A stretch of 12,544 nt of DNA from a virus. Shown in pieces: positions 381 to 12,544 of this stretch (position 1 is the stretch's first letter; each line of letters opens with the position of its first letter). Location: the UHGV virus genome UHGV-0329897. One strand, written 5' to 3'. Made by a program: the position numbers and the translations under genes. The notes under the pieces are model-generated. The model worked only from the letters and a program-made list of their open reading frames with translations. It had not been told where the DNA came from and did not search any database.

Positions 381-513
381 TTTTTGGGACTCCTGGCTGA
401 TTAAGTATGTCGATAAGGCGTTTCCATCCGTCACGTAATTTACGGGTGATTCGTTCAAGTAAAGATTCGGAAGGGCAGCCAGCAACAGGCCACCCTGCAA
501 TGGCATATTGCAT
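349..513 (-). CDS. cIII: CIII (protects CII from FtsH), 54 aa
   Basis: Hand translation from the ATG at 513 (minus): [54 protein letters not shown], stop at 349-351. Absent from the ORF track because it is under 60 aa. Confidence 0.85.
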   Translation of the reverse strand: MQYAIAGWPVAGCPSESLLERITRKLRDGWKRLIDILNQPGVPKNGSNTYGYPD

Positions 514-585
514 GGTGTGCTCCTTATTTATACATAACGAAAAACGCCTCGAGTGAAGCGTTATTGGTATGCGGTAACGCCGCGC

Positions 586-1531: not shown

Positions 1532-2086
1532 TTGATGAGTATAGAAATGGATCCACTCGTTATTCTCGGACGAGTGTTCAGTAATGAACCTCTGGAGAGA
1601 ACCATGTATATGATCGTTATCTGGGTTGGACTTCTGCTTTTAAGCCCAGATAACTGGCCTGAATATGTTAATGAGAGAATCGGTATTCCTCATGTGTGGC
1701 ATGTTTTCGTCTTTGCTCTTGCATTTTCGCTAGCAATTAATGTGCATCGATTATCAGCTATTGCCAGCGCCAGATATAAGCGATTTAAGCTAAGAAAACG
1801 CATTAAGATGCAAAACGATAAAGTGCGATCGGTAATTCAAAACCTTACAGAAGAGCAATCTATGGTTTTGTGCGCAGCCCTTAATGAAGGCAGGAAGTAT
1901 GTGGTTACATCAAAACAATTCCCATACATTAGTGAGTTGATTGAGCTTGGTGTGTTGAACAAAACTTTTTCCCGATGGAACGGGAAGCATATATTATTCC
2001 CTATTGAGGATATTTACTGGACTGAATTAGTTGCCAGCTATGATCCATATAATATTGAGATAAAGCCAAGGCCAATATCTAAGTAA
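1532..2086 (+). CDS. sieB: SieB superinfection exclusion protein (184 aa)
   Basis: 184-aa plus-strand ORF converging on N (stops at 2084-2086 and 2087-2089), the lambda arrangement. Hydrophobic N-terminal region (MIVIWVGLLLL..., VFVFALAFSLAI) as expected for SieB. Confidence 0.8.
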   Translation: MMSIEMDPLVILGRVFSNEPLERTMYMIVIWVGLLLLSPDNWPEYVNERIGIPHVWHVFVFALAFSLAINVHRLSAIASARYKRFKLRKRIKMQNDKVRSVIQNLTEEQSMVLCAALNEGRKYVVTSKQFPYISELIELGVLNKTFSRWNGKHILFPIEDIYWTELVASYDPYNIEIKPRPISK

Positions 2087-2410
2087 CTAGGTAAGAGGAA
2101 TCGATTTTCCCTTAATTTTCTGGCGTCCACTGCATGTTATGCCGCGTTCGCCAGGCTTGCTGTACCATGTGCGCTGATTCTTGCGCTCAATACGTTGCAG
2201 GTTGCTTTCAATCTGTTCGTGGTATTCAGCCAGCACTGTAAGGTCTATCGGATTCAGTGCGCTTTCTACTCGTGATTTCGGTTTGCGATTCAGCGAGAGA
2301 ATAGGGCGGTTAACTGGTTTTGCGCTTACCCCAACCAACAGGGGATTTGCTGCTTTCCATTGAGCCTGTTTCTCTGCGCGACGTTCGCGGCGGCGTGTTT
2401 GTGCATCCAT
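2087..2410 (-). CDS. N: N transcription antitermination protein (107 aa)
   Basis: Internal ATG at 2410 of the track ORF gives MDAQTRRRERRAEKQAQWKAANPLLVGVSAKPVNRPILSLNRKPKSRVESALNPIDLTVLAEYH..., including the arginine-rich boxB-binding N-terminus. The upstream extension in the track is leader sequence. Confidence 0.9.
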   Translation of the reverse strand: MDAQTRRRERRAEKQAQWKAANPLLVGVSAKPVNRPILSLNRKPKSRVESALNPIDLTVLAEYHEQIESNLQRIERKNQRTWYSKPGERGITCSGRQKIKGKSIPLT

Positions 2411-2520
2411 CTGGATTCTCCTGTCAGTTAGCTTTGAGTAACGCGCCGTGATGCTTATCCCCACGGTTGCTGTCTTGCAGCTGCATTTCGCGCTACTCAA
2501 AGCTTTCTGCTTTGAATGCT

Positions 2521-2551
2521 GCCCTTCTTCAGGGCTAAATTTTTAAGAGCC
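2521..2551 (-). promoter_or_regulatory. nutL (boxA + boxB) in the N leader
   Basis: Minus strand reads GCTCTTAAAAATTTAGCCCTGAAGAAGGGC: a boxA-like GCTCTTA followed by the boxB hairpin GCCCTGAAGAAGGGC (plus-strand 2521-2535). Confidence 0.75.
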
Positions 2552-2584
2552 TCACCTTCAATGGTGGTTAGTGCGTCCTGCTGA

Positions 2585-2654
2585 CGAGCTAAGTATCACC
2601 GCTAGTGGTATTTGTGTCAACACCGCTAGAGATATTTTATCACCGCAAATGGTT
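2585..2654 (-). promoter_or_regulatory. pL promoter with operators oL1 (2594-2610), oL2 (2618-2634), oL3 (2638-2654)
   Basis: Three 17-bp lambda-type operator sites (tatcaccgctagtggta, caacaccgctagagata, tatcaccgcaaatggtt). On the minus strand the -35 TTGACA (2615-2620) and -10 GATACT (2592-2597) direct transcription towards N. Confidence 0.8.
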
Positions 2655-2809
2655 ATCTGTATGTTTTTTATATGGATTTATTTTTTCGAGTGAGTGTATT
2701 GCCTCGGCGATGTAAGGAGAGATCAGAATTGCGTTGTTTAGTGAGTTGTATCTATTTATTTTCCAATAAATACAATTGGTTATGTGTTTTTAGGTGGGGC
2801 GATCGTGAG

Positions 2810-2839
2810 GCAAAGAAAACCCGGCGCTGAGGCCGGGTT
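2810..2839 (-). terminator. Intrinsic terminator closing the cI-adjacent cargo operon (tIMM-like position)
   Basis: Perfect 8-bp stem aacccggc/gccgggtt (2818-2839) with a 6-nt loop, starting 3 nt after the stop of the 250-aa ORF and followed on the minus strand by TTTCTTTG. Confidence 0.6.
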
Positions 2840-2842
2840 GTA

Positions 2843-3595
2843 TTATGCTGCAAGTCTCTTAATCCAAGTCTCTCTTTTGGAGAATGGTAGAACTTGGCTT
2901 GATTCATGGAAGAGTAAGGAGAGTTGTTGCATTTGATCACCAATTGCTTCGCTGTCTATAACAACAAATCTGTTGTTATACTCCTCACTTGAAGCTTTAA
3001 GATCAATTAGTTTCCCAAGCAATGAGTAAGCACTATTCCAGCTTCCTCCGTGTTTCACGCTTGATGTAAAAACGTATTTAGGTATGTCGGTTTTTATTGT
3101 TACAGGGACGGTAATTTGATGTCCACTCAAGCCATATACGTTTTCACGAAGAGAAAGTGCCTCTCTAAGCTCTGTGTGATATAGATAATCAATAACCATA
3201 CTTTCAAACTTTTCAGCTTGAACTGGCTGATACCAGTCTAACGACAAAGTTGATGCGAGTATACCAGCTCTAATTATGTTCGATGTAATCGCACCGACAT
3301 CCTTTTCTGTTGCCCAAGCAATGATTTCTCCTCGAGCATTGAGTTCTGCGCCTTCTTTAAGCAGTAATTGTCGTATCTCATCAAGTCGTTTTTTGGTAAG
3401 CGAGATCCCTCTTGCCTCCATATTCATTAAGGCATCGCATCTGTCACTAACTAAATACCTACCATTGACTTCACGGATAAAGGCACCGACATGCTCTCCA
3501 TCATCACAGTAAGTGAATGGACTGATAATTCTCAAGGTCTTGCCTATTGGATGGCATTCGAAACCTAGTTGTGAGATCACTGTTGAGCACATCAT
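2843..3595 (-). CDS. Hypothetical protein (250 aa), distal gene of the cI-adjacent cargo operon; no family recognised
   Basis: Long minus-strand ORF starting ATG ATG at 3595/3592; its start overlaps the upstream gene's stop (ATGA). Immediately followed by a terminator. No obvious transmembrane segment or catalytic motif that I can name. Confidence 0.7.
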   Translation of the reverse strand: MMCSTVISQLGFECHPIGKTLRIISPFTYCDDGEHVGAFIREVNGRYLVSDRCDALMNMEARGISLTKKRLDEIRQLLLKEGAELNARGEIIAWATEKDVGAITSNIIRAGILASTLSLDWYQPVQAEKFESMVIDYLYHTELREALSLRENVYGLSGHQITVPVTIKTDIPKYVFTSSVKHGGSWNSAYSLLGKLIDLKASSEEYNNRFVVIDSEAIGDQMQQLSLLFHESSQVLPFSKRETWIKRLAA

Positions 3596-4149
3596 ATTCC
3601 AAACCCCATTTGCCCCGACTCATCTTCAAGCGGTAAAGGTATTCTCCCAGAGTAAGTTATGTTCAGATGTTTACAGAAGTAATTCCAATACCCTACCAGG
3701 TCATCTGGGTTTATGTCATCTTCGATTGGAAACGCTATTCTATCACTATAGTATCCAGCTTCTTCATAGTATACATGGTAATGAGCACCGTAAATGATAT
3801 CTTGGTACTTCGGATGATCGACCTTGTAACTATTCGTGTGTTTGTCAAAGTGATAGGTATCTACCGCGAAAACCCTCTTGTTATGATAGAAAGCAATAAT
3901 ATTTATTTTAGGGTAAGAAATCGGGTCATCAGGTTCTGAATCCTGATCTGGTTTCCATTTCAGTTCAAACTTTAGCCCTTGTATAGGTATACAATCCTCA
4001 TCCAAGGGGATGATATGAGCTTGTAGCCACATATCAGAGCGACTTGGTTTCTGTTTCCATTTAACGCCAGAAAAGTTAACTATTTTTTTACAATAAAGTA
4101 CTTTATCAACTTCTACTTGGCTTGGCTGATAATCATCTATTTTTGCCAA
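3592..4149 (-). CDS. Hypothetical acidic, aromatic-rich protein (185 aa), proximal gene of the cI-adjacent cargo operon; no family recognised
   Basis: Minus-strand ORF beginning 39 nt downstream of the cI stop. The codon at 4149-4147 is TTG (track prints M) preceded by AGGGCGG 7 nt upstream; the first in-frame ATG is codon 40. Contains acidic clusters (PDQDSEPDDP, EDDINPDD, LEDESGQ). Confidence 0.65.
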   Translation of the reverse strand: MAKIDDYQPSQVEVDKVLYCKKIVNFSGVKWKQKPSRSDMWLQAHIIPLDEDCIPIQGLKFELKWKPDQDSEPDDPISYPKINIIAFYHNKRVFAVDTYHFDKHTNSYKVDHPKYQDIIYGAHYHVYYEEAGYYSDRIAFPIEDDINPDDLVGYWNYFCKHLNITYSGRIPLPLEDESGQMGFGI

Positions 4150-4188
4150 TGTTTACCGCCCTGTAAATTGTAGATAAAAGTGGTTTCA

Positions 4189-4905
<717 letters not shown>

Positions 4906-9878: not shown

Positions 9879-10262
9879 ATGCGTGATATTCAGATGGTTC
9901 TTGAGCGTTGGGGAGCGTGGGCGGCTAATAATCATGAAGATGTGACCTGGTCGTCCATTGCCGCCGGTTTTAAGGGATTAATTACTTCAAAAGTAAAATC
10001 TCGCCCGCAATGTTGTGACGATGACGCGATGATTATTTGCGGGTGCATGGCCCGTCTGAAAAAGAACAACAGCGATTTGCACGATTTATTAGTAGATTAT
10101 TATGTAGTCGGTATGACATTCATGTCACTGGCAGGTAAGCATTGCTGCTCTGATGGTTATATCGGGAAAAGGTTACAGAAGGCTGAGGGCATAATTGAAG
10201 GGATGTTAATGGCATTAGATATCCGGTTAGAGATGGATATCGTTGTTAATAACTCTAATTAA
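9879..10262 (+). CDS. quuD: Q-type late-gene antiterminator QuuD (127 aa)
   Basis: ATG at 9879 gives [71 protein letters not shown]..., matching DLP12 QuuD as I recall it. The track ORF starts at an upstream GTG. Confidence 0.85.
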
Positions 10263-10450
10263 TATGCCAATTGTTTACTAAAAATTATTAAAAATGGGGC
10301 GTTGCAACGCCCCCAAAAATAAAGGGTAATATATAACAGAAGGTTTATATAGTTAGAAGCAAGGTTGTGCTCCTAAAGGAAGTGGCTTGAGGGAGCCACT
10401 TATATGTTGGGGAGGCAAAGCCTCCCGCAACATATCTTTTAGTAATCAAA
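10263..10450. promoter_or_regulatory. Late regulatory region downstream of Q (expected PR'/qut) with convergent hairpin terminators
   Basis: Hairpins at 10296-10313 (ggggcgttg/caacgcccc, U-tract on the minus strand), 10380-10401 (aagtggct/agccactt) and 10402-10435 (about 15-bp bulged stem followed by CTTTT on the plus strand). They lie between the convergent quuD and nmpC stops. Exact PR' hexamers not assigned. Confidence 0.45.
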
Positions 10451-11533
10451 TTAGAACTGGTAAACCATACCTACAGCAACGATATCATCGGTAGCAACGC
10501 CAGATGCTTTCGTGAAATCGCTCTTATCAATCAGGTTGATTTTGTAATCAACAAAAGTGGACATATTTTTGTTGAAGTAATAGGTTGCACCTACATCAAT
10601 ATATTCAACCAGGTCCTGATCACCCCACGCACCCAAGTCTTTTCCTTTAGATTGCAGGTAAGCAACGGACGGACGCAGACCGAAGTCGAACTGATATTGT
10701 GCAACTACTTCGAAGTTTTGTGCTTTGTTGGCAATATGGTTATTACCAAAAACAGTCATGTTCTGGGTTTCAGAATAGGTGGTAGCCAGATAGATGTTGT
10801 TCGCATCATATTTCAGACCAGCTGCCCATACTTCAGCATTTTGACCAGATGCATTCAGGCTGTTGTTACCGTAGATAACCTGATTATTAGTGCGGTCAGA
10901 TTTAGCATAGGTTGCACCTACACCGAATCCTTCATACTCATAAGTAGTGGAGAAACCGAAACCATCACCATTAGCTTCAGTTACGTCAGTGCGGTCATTT
11001 TTACCCTGATACTGAGCAGCAAAGTTCAGACCATCAACCAGACCAAAGAAGTCGTTGTTACGATAAGTTGCAACACCAGTGGTGCGACCAGTCATGAACA
11101 CATCTGTTTGGGTCCAGGTATCGCCACCGAATTCTGGCAGAACGTCAGTCCACGCACCGATGTCGTATGCTACACCGTAGTTACGGCCGTAATCGATTGA
11201 GCCGTAGTCACCGAATTTCAGGCCTGCAAATGCAAGACGGGTTTTGTCTTTGGAGGAACCTTGAGATTCAGCGCGGTTGCCTTTGAATTCATATTCCCAC
11301 TGACCGAAACCAGTCAGTTGATCGTTGATTTGGGTTTCACCTTTGAAGCCAAGACGGGCATAAGTAGTATCACCATCATCTGCATCATTAGAGGAGAAGT
11401 AGTGCTTAGCATTAACTTTCCCGTACAGATCCAGCTTGTTACTGTCTTTATTATAAATTTCAGCTGCCTGAGCAGACATCGCCATCAGTACTGATGCAGC
11501 TACAGCAGAAATTGCCACTGTTAATTTTTTCAT
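10451..11533 (-). CDS. nmpC: Outer-membrane general porin, NmpC/OmpD-type (360-aa precursor)
   Basis: ATG at 11533 with SD AAGGG; signal peptide [23 protein letters not shown] then AEIYNKD...; C-terminal beta-barrel signature ending ...VAVGMVYQF. Uninterrupted reading frame. The track start at 11593 is an upstream alternative start. Confidence 0.9.
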
Positions 11534-11960
11534 CGTGAGCCCTTTTTTTGAACTATTATTAAAAAATGATGTCACTGCGCGATAAATATTCATCTAATCA
11601 ATGTGATTATTTCAAGATGTAAGTTTTGGTTTCTCATTTGATTTGTGAAGTAGATCTCTATTTTTATCTGAACTTTTTCTATCGAATCCTATTCATGGCT
11701 CTTGGCTGAATAAAAATAAATCTATTAGCCAATTTATATTAATGGCTGTTATTTATAAGTGCTCTATAATTTGAAGGTTCAATTTAAATCGGCTAAAAAT
11801 AACGCTGGAAATTATTTGTTGGTTATTTGTTGAGATTTTCTTATGTATTTGTAGTGGTGTTTTCAATACTCGGTAGCATTCTCGCAAATATCATTTAGTG
11901 GTTTACGTACGTAAAAAATTGGTTATGCTGTTAAGAGTGGTTACTTCGTCACACAGCTTA

Positions 11961-11985
11961 AACCCGCCACTGAGCGGGTTTTTTG
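11961..11985 (+). terminator. Orphan intrinsic terminator in the nmpC upstream region
   Basis: 7-bp stem aacccgc/gcgggtt with a 6-nt loop followed by T6 on the plus strand; no plus-strand ORF precedes it. Confidence 0.45.
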
Positions 11986-12106
11986 TACCTGTAAACTTGG
12001 TGCAGTACAGTAAACACGCTGGTGGTCGTGAATACTGACTTTTTATCTTGCTGGCTTTTTAGACAAGAGTTATTGGTATGTCATGTTAACCAGAAGGGAA
12101 AAAGAC

Positions 12107-12304
12107 ATGCTAAAACAGCAAGATATGACCGAAACCGCCAGAGTGGTGTTTAATGAATTGAGCGTCACCGAACCGGCGACTGTCGGGGAAATTGCGCAGA
12201 ATACTTACCTTTCACGTGAACGCTGCCAGTTAATACTGACTCAGCTTGTTATGGCGGGTCTGGCAGATTATCAGTTCGGTTGTTACAGACGCCTTCAGCC
12301 CTGA
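12107..12304 (+). CDS. Small putative winged-helix DNA-binding protein (65 aa; alternative start at 12083 gives 73 aa)
   Basis: ATG at 12107 preceded by AAGGGA at 7-nt spacing. The pattern ...ATVGEIAQNTYLSRERCQLILTQLVMAGLADY resembles wHTH regulators of the IclR/MarR/TrmB type. Stop is embedded in a terminator hairpin. Confidence 0.5.
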   Translation: MLKQQDMTETARVVFNELSVTEPATVGEIAQNTYLSRERCQLILTQLVMAGLADYQFGCYRRLQP

Positions 12305-12316
12305 AGGCTTTTTTAT
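12291..12316 (+). terminator. Intrinsic terminator after the small wHTH ORF
   Basis: Stem gccttca/tgaaggc with loop gccc, followed by TTTTTTATTT. Confidence 0.55.
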
Positions 12317-12454: not shown

Positions 12455-12544
12455 ATGCTTAATACTGTAAAAATATCCAGTTGTGAGTTAATCAACGCCG
12501 ACTGCCTGGAATTTATCCGGTCGTTACCCGAAAATTCTGTTGAC
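12455..12544 (+). CDS. 5' end (30 codons) of a DNA methyltransferase (N6-adenine/N4-cytosine class), truncated by the window edge
   Basis: ATG at 12455; MLNTVKISSCELINADCLEFIRSLPENSVD is the typical N-terminus of PF01555-type methyltransferases, which usually continues ...LIxTDPPY. The rest lies outside the window. Confidence 0.5.
   Translation, partial: MLNTVKISSCELINADCLEFIRSLPENSVD

Follow-up and report, generated by a model that had tools for sequence, protein, structure and literature searches.

The window analysed here is a stretch of 12,544 nucleotides of the virus genome UHGV-0329897, in which a porin gene lies on the minus strand between the gene for a late antiterminator Q and a block resembling the late promoter pR′. 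The features of this locus, read along the window, are the following.

9879 to 10262, plus strand: quuD, late-gene antiterminator Q of the Q21/933W family (Pfam PF06530, E 3.5e-53)
10284 to 10450, minus strand: IpeX RNA region, the 3′ UTR of the porin mRNA (167 nt), with five predicted hairpins, the last being the terminator
10296 to 10313, minus strand: hairpin GGGGCGTTGCAACGCCCC of an intrinsic terminator, with a T run extending to 10284 (terminator scan)
10451 to 11533, minus strand: porin coding sequence, 360 codons plus a TAA stop (10451-10453), mature protein of 337 residues
11465 to 11533, minus strand: signal peptide of 23 residues, with cleavage before AEIYNK (from PDB chain starts and the OmpC/OmpF alignment)
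11534 to 11900, no strand: AT-rich divergent control region (28% GC) between the porin start codon and the pR′-like promoter
11540 to 11544, minus strand: Shine-Dalgarno sequence AAGGG, 6 nt 5′ of the ATG, as read from the sequence
11586 to 11615, minus strand: candidate porin promoter, TTGAAA (11615-11610), an 18-nt spacer and GAATAT (11591-11586)
11902 to 11929, plus strand: pR′-like late promoter, −35 TTTACG (11902-11907), a 16-nt spacer and −10 TATGCT (11924-11929)
11963 to 11984, plus strand: promoter-proximal hairpin, CCCGC-N6-GCGGG then T6, homologue of the first terminator after pR′ in phage phi24B

The neighbours of this cassette on one side are cIII, N, cI, cro, cII, O, P, the nin genes, rusA and Q, and on the other side lie the pR′-like element and a methylase. 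The initial annotation had described the porin as an opposite-strand gene convergent with quuD and lying between Q and the downstream late region. The convergence is confirmed (quuD at 9879-10262 on the plus strand, the porin on the minus strand), and the position is borne out and can be sharpened to the interval between Q and the pR′-like element at 11902-11984. Judged by sequence matching, the cassette separates Q from the promoter and hairpin corresponding to its family.

The listed open reading frame at 10451 to 11593 on the minus strand encodes 380 amino acids from its first ATG, and 360 amino acids from the MKKLTV start at 11533. The latter is taken as the true start, because the mature porin alignment begins next to an AQA motif, a Shine-Dalgarno sequence is present and the upstream ATG at 11593 falls within the candidate −10 hexamer. 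Mature porin chains with solved structures in the PDB align from query residue 24, directly 3′ of the AQA cleavage motif, and the resulting N-terminus AEIYNK fits the AE(I/V)YNK that follows the signal peptide in the porin family. The AAGGG sequence is mostly kept across five diverged loci, reading AAGGA in E. albertii. The locus had been proposed to encode an uninterrupted 360-residue porin precursor with a signal peptide and its own Shine-Dalgarno sequence; the reading frame, the Porin_1 match and the mature start at residue 24 agree with the former, and the latter is found at 11544-11540.

The protein spans the whole Pfam profile Porin_1 (PF00267; 1-337 of 337, E 3.1e-153, 510.6 bits against a cut-off of 23.7). 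It also passes the NCBIfam model NF007841 'porin OmpC' (518.1 bits against a curated cut-off of 484), but this is a subfamily model and not an equivalog, so that the score does not make the window gene ompC itself; the NCBIfam equivalog cut-offs for PhoE (506 versus 599 bits) and OmpF (484 versus 583) are not reached. K39, R60, R99, R158, D124 and E134 occupy invariant columns in an alignment with K-12 OmpC and OmpF, and we take them to be the equivalents of the constriction residues K16, R42, R82, R132, D113 and E117 in OmpF numbering. The PEFGG motif of loop 3 (P133-G137) is likewise invariant, and the C-terminus, VYQF, ends in the aromatic Phe shared with OmpC and OmpF. By these matches the general-porin barrel is complete, with all pore-constriction residues in place, and the gene is judged to be real and probably functional.

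Full-length homology to the solved structures of OmpC, OmpF, PhoE and OmpK37 (E 1e-120 to 1e-137) and a shared 16-strand barrel family connect the window porin with the OmpC/OmpF-type general porins. Nevertheless, it is only 62-63% identical to OmpC and OmpF and is prophage-borne, and it is closer to NmpC (90%) and to the OmpD clade (79-80%). These identities assign the gene to the NmpC/Lc/OmpD clade, in keeping with the NmpC/OmpD type given in the initial annotation. OmpD, the major porin of Salmonella, and the orthologous porins of Citrobacter and Enterobacter belong to the same length class and show the same loop pattern, but they are chromosomal and, unlike the window copy, lack the IpeX 3′ UTR, the quuD neighbour and the pR′-like element.

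The nearest described locus is nmpC in the DLP12 (qsr′) prophage of K-12, which shares with the window the order rusA, ylcG, quuD, opposite-strand porin, AT-rich region and pR′-like element. The two porins are identical over residues 1-147 and 90% identical overall when IS5 is removed from the K-12 gene, and the 3′ UTR is the same. NmpC has 365 residues compared to 360 in the window porin, and the loops L4 (181-190), L5 (219-231), L6 (263-267) and L8 differ. The K-12 copy had been cited as a pseudogene interrupted by an insertion element, and nmpC of MG1655 is indeed split by IS5, 58 nt before the stop codon, whereas the window copy is intact. Downstream of the hairpin DLP12 continues with essD-rrrD-rzpD, whereas the window past 11984 holds a small ORF and a DNA methyltransferase. 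A further relative is Lc ('protein 2') of the lambdoid phage PA-2, which is likewise phage-borne and, according to summaries in reviews, is expressed in the lysogen from an IpeX-carrying transcript that lowers OmpC. Under the name 'outer membrane porin protein LC', the exact window protein also appears in one public source. Lc presumably falls in the 365-residue class of K-12 NmpC, and the window porin would then represent the other length class. Details on the PA-2 Lc porin and on the IpeX-carrying transcript are reportedly to be found in Blasband et al. 1986 and Castillo-Keller et al. 2006.

Directly 3′ of the porin stop codon lies the IpeX region, which ends at the only terminator. The initial annotation had overlooked this 3′ UTR, the known route by which such a cassette acts on OmpC and OmpF. 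Its identification is based on a four-sequence alignment with 98% mean column identity, including the K-12 DLP12 stretch from the nmpC stop codon to quuD, and on its length: from the stop codon to the end of the T run it measures 167 nt, the same as the published IpeX. Review accounts describe IpeX as a 167-nt RNA of DLP12 made within the porin transcript and as lowering host OmpC and OmpF post-transcriptionally; simple base pairing with ompC is not reported in those accounts. The region folds strongly (MFE −61.8 kcal/mol, z −8.3, with 0 of 200 shuffles as good), and the E. albertii sequence carries one compensatory change in hairpin 1, from C:G to U:A. On the plus strand the terminator hairpin lacks a T run, and a consensus promoter scan of the IpeX region gave no promoter-like site. 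Rfam holds no family for IpeX, and only the lambda cIII thermoregulator scored above threshold in the window; sub-threshold matches near 11950-12090 (STnc130, Trp leader, P9) owe their scores to the terminator hairpin and are probably due to chance. The svsR small RNA of a 2025 preprint, which is prophage-encoded and limits phage infection, lies within cI and acts on lamB, and is unrelated to the porin cassette.

Upstream of the gene, the AT-rich region noted earlier is evident (28% GC over 11525-11900). Its porin-proximal 130 nt are conserved and positions 11700-11900 are variable. The TTGAAA and GAATAT hexamers of the candidate porin promoter do not vary among the window, K-12, NRG 857C, PK8566 and E. 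albertii, and from this promoter the transcript would be expected to start near 11579 and to end near 10284. A sigma-70 consensus scan returned no promoter on either strand of 11534-11930, so that homology and conservation are the basis for assigning both the porin promoter and pR′. A CRP-like site at 11644-11659 (TGTGA-N6-TCTCT), about 72 bp upstream of the guessed transcription start, was not accepted, as the window contains three two-mismatch matches compared to 6.3 expected by chance; it is kept as a weak lead only because the block is conserved in part.

The pR′-like promoter is directed away from the porin and forms the most conserved non-coding block of the locus (pi 0.016). The quuD product is 78% identical to Q of the Stx phage phi24B, with homologous loci being annotated as quuD, and an identity of about 78% is also seen between the promoter and hairpin block and the stretch directly 3′ of Q in Stx phages such as phi24B and 933W. 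Both these phages share with the window the −35 TTTACG and the conserved TAAGAGTGGTTAC...AACCCGCC...GCGGGTTTTTT, and the annotation of phi24B gives the equivalent stretch as a putative late promoter with qut and terminator. The window counterpart of this phi24B pR′ region spans 11902-11984, and matching with most relatives ends at 11983, marking a mosaic breakpoint at 11983/11984. In the Stx phages, however, this promoter block overlaps the end of Q, whereas the window has about 1.65 kb of reverse-strand cargo (porin and IpeX) in between. The flanks of the cassette are thus adjacent when it is absent, as in phi24B and related Stx phages, and this arrangement, along with the cassette's own terminator (10313-10284, minus strand), agrees with the earlier description of the porin as a moron.

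Since Q and the porin gene converge, antisense late transcription through the porin was considered. It was discarded, because the promoter homologue that matches this Q lies beyond the porin and its promoter. A MAFFT alignment had also suggested a relic of pR′ after the quuD stop (10270-10300), which would have formed a direct repeat flanking the cassette; this was rejected as AT-rich chance similarity, as the local alignment scored 14 compared to a shuffled mean of 14.3, with 1,230 of 2,000 shuffles as good.

Cassettes of this kind are common. Of 5,426 complete E. coli genomes, about 2,460 (~45%) carry the same locus and 2,509 the IpeX region, and copies in the complete genomes number roughly 2,900. 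The locus is also present in cultured temperate phages, and this allele is carried by phage PhiR34_1, among others; the identical porin protein is encoded by at least 1,000 public contigs. Earlier work has described the gene, where it lies in prophages, the IS5-inactivated K-12 copy and the IpeX tail, so that the window itself adds little. Among about 200 IMG/VR and reference loci, 188 read intact from the MKKLTV start; the K-12 copy with IS5 and three loci with a 1-nt deletion are disrupted, and seven others are cut by the end of the locus. Across 67 distinct alleles the pN/pS of the barrel is 0.03-0.04, which argues against a chance ORF and shows that purifying selection on the barrel is strong in many prophages. 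Variation between the porin alleles is concentrated in the surface-loop segments L4-L8. The IpeX 3′ UTR travels only with phage-borne porins and is absent at chromosomal ompD loci in other genera.

The naming of these genes is of practical importance. RefSeq calls the window-type gene 'porin OmpC', and the IpeX region is unannotated in all 30 RefSeq examples listed among the 2,509 carrier genomes. Clinical E. coli studies can therefore overlook a second, prophage-borne porin whose unit also turns down OmpC and OmpF, which is of concern for work on porin loss, carbapenem resistance and phage receptors.

Most likely, the locus represents an nmpC/lc-type cassette for lysogenic conversion by porin swap, borne on a lambda-like prophage. 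It forms a self-contained transcription unit, with early and late phage transcription both running on the other strand. By analogy with its relatives, host RNA polymerase would transcribe the unit from its own promoter in the lysogen, more so at 37 °C, and the porin would be exported and assembled into trimeric outer-membrane pores, as work on Lc and NmpC suggests. The IpeX part of the transcript would then lower OmpC and OmpF after transcription, as in the published work on IpeX, and it is this effect that makes the unit a porin-swap cassette rather than a mere additional porin. With the host porins lowered, the phage porin would replace them instead of adding to them, and consequently the docking of phages and colicins would change, for example by exclusion of OmpC-dependent phages such as 434, T4 and PA-2-like phages, as would inward diffusion. 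The steps that concern lc/nmpC and ipeX draw on reviews and on general knowledge of these systems, and we infer them for the window by analogy. Self-exclusion would require that the prophage itself uses OmpC; OmpC is the receptor of PA-2, and no tail genes are present within the window.

Several other explanations were weighed against the porin-swap cassette. The RefSeq label could point to a non-phage gene, that is, a chromosomal ompC paralogue or an artefact of assembly or annotation, but the gene is flanked by lambdoid phage genes (cIII to Q) and by the pR′-like element with the methylase, 36 sequenced phage genomes contain the cassette with a coverage of at least 80%, and identity to K-12 OmpC is only 63%; the genomic context refutes this reading, whose probability is negligible. 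It is also unlikely that the porin is a quiescent passenger, intact but silenced in the lysogen, hitch-hiking and causing no ordinary phenotype. AT-rich upstream DNA is a typical target of H-NS, and silencing of the 28%-GC region would agree with the lack of a strong sigma-70 promoter in the scan. In addition, nmpC is named as one of two 'quiescent porin genes' of E. coli B in the title of a cited work, and no phage of the BASEL collection shows a growth phenotype on a K-12 nmpC knockout, although nmpC is already inactive in K-12. The low pN/pS over the 67 alleles, however, argues for selection on the protein, a decayed prophage remnant without Q and lysis genes still keeps the cassette and IpeX, and relatives are expressed: 10-fold above the local background in an LF82 lysogen and, at both the mRNA and the protein level, upon induction at 37 °C in CFT073.

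Induction at 37 °C, which is seen in K-12 MC4100 as well, and a reported link with heat resistance in strain AW1.7 fit a different possibility, namely that host physiology provides the selected benefit and that a changed phage receptor is a side effect. In the gut, a pore induced at 37 °C would alter permeability, antigenicity and tolerance of heat or stress, and the L4-L8 variation is as consistent with immune as with phage pressure. This explanation is possible, though not probable; it is compatible with the porin-swap cassette and does not exclude it, and exclusion fits equally well or better with the carriage by active temperate phages and with the link to IpeX, since OmpC, which IpeX removes, often serves as a phage receptor. 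Rather improbable is that the RNA is the payload, with IpeX being selected and the porin ORF serving mainly as its promoter and carrier transcript. The very strong fold of the IpeX region and its restriction to phage-borne copies would agree with this, as would its nucleotide diversity (pi 0.02 in the 3′ UTR versus 0.06-0.16 in the adjacent 3′ half of the coding sequence), but this comparison is biased, the loci having been chosen partly by an exact 43-nt IpeX match, and is of qualitative use only. Moreover, strong purifying selection acts on the ORF and hardly any copy is disrupted, which would be needless for a mere carrier.

A wider joint reading is tentatively put forward beside the porin-swap cassette, in which the Q-pR′ gap is a general reverse-strand cargo slot, its porin alleles recombine and the pR′ transcript is a regulatory RNA. 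The Q-to-pR′ gap of phages with a Q21/933W-type Q may be a general slot for reverse-strand cargo expressed in the lysogen. It is occupied by the porin and IpeX in the window, and by unrelated pairs of uncharacterised reverse-strand genes in phages SfIV and vB_EcoS-569R4. If the joint reading is true, phage or immune pressure would drive the exchange of porin alleles in the slot through recombination, with the N-terminal half and IpeX remaining fixed; the 360- and 365-residue allele classes differ in loops L4-L8, with high synonymous divergence. Furthermore, a regulatory role like that of StxS in the Stx phages could fall to the short RNA made constitutively from pR′, which is predicted to run from near 11936 to about 11984 in the uninduced lysogen. 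Independently of this, the finding that the cassette lies between Q and pR′ is useful anatomy for engineering or annotating such prophages.

The porin gene of the window is a complete, selected and probably autonomous transcription unit with an IpeX 3' UTR and an intrinsic terminator, oriented against phage transcription and inserted between the late antiterminator gene Q (quuD) and its matched, pR'-like late promoter. The protein matches Pfam Porin_1 from end to end (E 3e-153) and the closest solved structures, OmpK37, OmpC and OmpK36, over the full length (E 1e-137 to 1e-130). Judged by sequence, its porin fold is hardly in doubt. In the porin alignment there is no variation at any of the OmpF pore-constriction residues (K39, R60, R99, R158, D124 and E134 in window precursor numbering), in the loop 3 PEFGG turn or at the C-terminal Phe. 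The NCBIfam 'porin OmpC' subfamily model gives 518 bits (cut-off 484), and the protein stays under the cut-offs of both the PhoE and the OmpF equivalog models. For comparison, NmpC of the K-12 cryptic prophage DLP12 was rebuilt by taking out IS5 and its CTAA target duplication. The resulting 365-aa protein is 90% identical to the window porin, with residues 1-147 being identical and the differences clustering at 181-190, 219-231, 263-267 and in the C-terminal 60 residues. Identity amounts to 80% and 79% for the chromosomal porins of Salmonella enterica subsp. arizonae and Citrobacter werkmanii, respectively, compared to 63% for K-12 OmpC and 62% for K-12 OmpF. These values make the label 'NmpC/OmpD-type', proposed in the initial annotation, an accurate one. 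Its statement that the K-12 prophage nmpC is an insertion-interrupted pseudogene also holds, as the gene at the same locus of MG1655 is split by IS5.

Read from its first ATG, the minus-strand frame 10451..11593 in the ORF list encodes 380 aa, while the initial annotation had placed the start of an uninterrupted 360-aa precursor with a signal peptide at 11533. The latter start is the correct one, because solved porins, in their mature form, begin to align at query residue 24, AAGGG lies 6 nt upstream of this ATG and the alternative in-frame ATG 11593 falls within a candidate -10 hexamer. From ATG 11533, the precursor opens with a 23-residue segment followed by AEIYNK... The ribosome-binding site, AT-rich upstream region and convergence with quuD (9879-10262, plus strand) described earlier were all recovered.

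Features of the porin cassette (porin and IpeX 3' UTR)
11533 to 10451, minus strand: porin coding sequence, ATG at 11533, TAA stop 10451-10453, 360 residues
11544-11540, minus strand: Shine-Dalgarno sequence AAGGG, 6 nt upstream of ATG 11533
11525-11900: AT-rich upstream region, 28% GC
11615-11610 and 11591-11586, minus strand: candidate porin promoter, TTGAAA and GAATAT with 18 nt between, invariant in the five-copy alignment
11571-11578, minus strand: GCAGTGAC (GCAGTGGC in E. albertii), in the presumed porin 5' UTR
11514-11520, minus strand: CAGTGGC, porin codons 5-7
10450 down to 10284, minus strand: IpeX stretch, 167 nt, beginning after the porin stop codon and including the terminator T run
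10313-10284, minus strand: terminator closing the porin unit, a G+C-rich hairpin with a trailing T run

A consensus scan of the window gave no porin promoter. The TTGAAA/GAATAT pair is proposed as a candidate only; it is invariant among five diverged porin copies, E. albertii among them, as are the downstream GCAGTG and AATAGTTCAAAAAAAGG blocks. A CRP-like half-palindrome at 11644-11659 showed no excess over chance expectation.

The 3' UTR of the porin mRNA, overlooked in the initial annotation, matches the DNA that lies between the stop codon of nmpC and quuD in K-12 DLP12, with 98% mean column identity in a four-sequence alignment. According to reviews, IpeX is an RNA of 167 nt from DLP12 and the lambdoid phage PA-2; it is transcribed from the porin promoter within the porin mRNA and reduces OmpC and OmpF post-transcriptionally, with no obvious base pairing to ompC. 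The original IpeX paper, by Castillo-Keller, Vuong and Misra in 2006, reportedly agrees with this description. The predicted fold comprises five hairpins, the last being the terminator, with an MFE of -61.8 kcal/mol (shuffles -32.0 +/- 3.6; z -8.3). Changes in IpeX variants fall mostly within hairpin loops, and in hairpin 1 of the E. albertii copy (88% identity) a C:G pair is replaced by U:A through compensatory change. Of 5,426 complete E. coli genomes, 2,509 contain IpeX, with ≥90% identity in nearly every case; none of the 30 genome records listed annotates it, and Rfam holds no family for IpeX. Chromosomal ompD loci in Citrobacter, Enterobacter, Salmonella and others lack it, so IpeX belongs to the phage cassette and not to the porin clade. 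In E. coli NRG 857C, a remnant devoid of Q and lysis genes and flanked by ybcM and a host gene still holds the porin (99.2% identity to the window porin) and IpeX. Only the cassette seems to have been domesticated here, and its retention fits a benefit to the host. The decayed remnant spans 1978790-1983554, and the host gene there is a frameshifted yedK.

QuuD falls in Pfam PF06530, the Q21/933W family, and shares 78% identity with the Q protein of Stx phage phi24B. With window 11780-11990 as query, 11901-11989 proved ~78% identical to the DNA directly after Q in several hundred Stx phage records. The homologous DNA of phi24B is annotated with a putative late promoter, qut site and first terminator.

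Elements of the pR'-like region from the phi24B alignment
11902-11907, plus strand: pR'-like -35 TTTACG, 16-nt spacer to the -10
11924-11929, plus strand: pR'-like -10 TATGCT
within the pR'-like region, plus strand: conserved TAAGAGTGGTTAC block
11963-11984, plus strand: promoter-proximal hairpin CCCGC-N6-GCGGG, then T6

In phi24B the late promoter overlaps the end of Q, whereas ~1.65 kb separates the two in the window. This segment (roughly 10240-11897), placed between Q and its matched promoter, holds a Q C-terminal tail unlike that of phi24B, followed by the terminator and IpeX, the porin gene and the AT-rich region. The pR'-like block is the most conserved non-coding stretch of the locus (pi 0.016), and the candidate porin promoter and pR'-like promoter stand back to back. 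With the pR' homologue located beyond the porin, Q-dependent late transcription would begin there, without antisense reading through the gene. This agrees with the published use by the DLP12 lysis genes of a promoter region upstream of essD, controlled by a Q-type antiterminator. The sequence TGGTT(T)A occurs three times, at about 11899, 11920 and 11937, and could represent Q-binding subsites. In Stx phages, the constitutive, terminated pR' transcript yields the Hfq-binding small RNA StxS (PMC7547250); DLP12-type prophages may make a similar short RNA.

The phages SfIV (2933-4355) and vB_EcoS-569R4 (2152-3547) carry two uncharacterised minus-strand genes between Q and the same hairpin element, and the larger gene of each pair has no Pfam match. 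Since other reverse-strand gene pairs fill this slot, the Q-pR' gap looks like a recurrent site for reverse-strand cargo. Position 11983/11984, in the T run of the pR'-proximal hairpin, is a mosaic junction, because most relatives stop matching the window there. Past it, most relatives carry essD-rrrD-rzpD. The window, like E. coli strain 14EC001, continues with a 73-codon ORF that has a weak TrmB-like match (12083-12304), a terminator-like hairpin at 12291-12308 and a DNA methyltransferase gene beginning near 12455; 14EC001 goes on with lambda-type holin, endolysin and Rz.

Roughly 200 loci were gathered, 80 via the protein, 120 via an exact 43-nt 3' UTR match and a few from complete genomes. 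Full read-through from the MKKLTV start was found in 188 (22 distinct proteins); loci without it comprise seven truncated at the locus end, three in which the A6 run behind the start codon has lost 1 nt, and the K-12 IS5 copy. In the IMG/VR viral contigs L069 and L082 (= L120), A5 replaces A6 in ATGAAAAAATTA just after the ATG (equivalent to window 11525-11530), causing a frameshift that could be either an artefact of homopolymer sequencing or an off-switch. Further genomes brought the set to 67 distinct coding sequences in two length classes, 360 and 365 aa. Pooled over these alleles, pN/pS amounts to 0.03 in codons 1-150 and 0.04 in the remaining barrel, values free of loop-limit circularity, and 0.11-0.40 in five segments assigned to loops L4-L8, the limits of which were drawn from variation and indels and are partly circular. 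The barrel is under strong purifying selection. The first 150 residues hold just 9 of 65 variable protein positions, and the C-terminal half shows two to five times the synonymous divergence of the N-terminal half, a sign that the alleles are mosaics from recombination.

The window covers the early region of a lambda-like prophage: a cIII thermoregulator RNA (468-526, minus strand; full-length match to Rfam RF01804, 88.5 bits, gathering score 50); DUF2528, the superinfection-exclusion gene SieB (1532-2086, plus strand; PF14163, E 1e-29) and N; a two-gene insert at the rexAB position; cI-type repressor, cro, cII, O, P and ren; and NinB, Dam-type methylase, NinE, NinX, RusA, YlcG and QuuD. SieB gives this prophage a second exclusion function. 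The 1.9-kb quuD-porin-upstream stretch occurs in 2,459 of 5,426 complete E. coli genomes (≥80% coverage) and in 36 phage genome records, including the cultured temperate phages PhiR34_1, ev243 and mEp332. More than 60 IMG/VR viral contigs encode the identical 360-aa protein, as do at least 1,000 contigs of a large protein collection, where it goes by the names 'porin OmpD', 'porin OmpC' and 'outer membrane porin protein LC'. NmpC and Lc, the PA-2 porin, have been known since the 1970s-80s. The porin finding is correct but ordinary, the exact protein being widespread and all elements already described (NmpC/Lc, K-12 IS5 inactivation, IpeX in 2006, the Q21/933W pR' cassette). The additions are anatomical: the cassette includes IpeX and splits Q from pR', the porin comes in two length classes with loop mosaicism, and the same slot carries other reverse-strand cargo elsewhere.

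A porin relative in LF82 is expressed in the lysogen, 10-fold over local background; in CFT073 a relative is strongly induced at 37 °C as mRNA and protein, and the same thermoregulation is reported for K-12 MC4100. The 5' end of the envelope-stress RNA RybB, which we take to be GCCACUGC, is complementary to GCAGTGAC (11571-11578) and CAGTGGC (11514-11520). RybB targets nmpC mRNA (PMC3333887). By extension from relatives, host RNA polymerase would transcribe the porin unit in the lysogen and the exported porin would assemble as trimers. The IpeX portion of the transcript would lower OmpC and OmpF, so that the phage porin replaces the host porins, altering permeability and the availability of phage and colicin receptors. 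The PA-2 porin cassette is regarded as a self-exclusion device, and the window cassette would be one if OmpC is the receptor to which its own prophage adsorbs.

The prophage context excludes that the porin gene is chromosomal or an artefact. The gene might be a silenced passenger, in line with its AT-rich control region and the 'quiescent' state in E. coli B; this is possible but fits poorly with the selection data and the expression of relatives. A payload consisting of the IpeX RNA only is likewise a poor fit, with the ORF under purifying selection. A benefit to host physiology, through 37 °C induction, heat tolerance or antigenic change, may be the main selective force and is compatible with replacement of host porins by the phage porin.

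The two overlapping ORFs at 2843-4149 (minus strand), directly downstream of the cI-type repressor at the lambda rexAB position, encode 250 aa with DUF1828 and 185 aa that match DUF6978 weakly. The pair matches PDC-M24, a candidate defence system in PADLOC (part B, E 5.8e-10; part A, E 4.8e-4). Another gene occupies this position in the E. coli relatives closest to the window.
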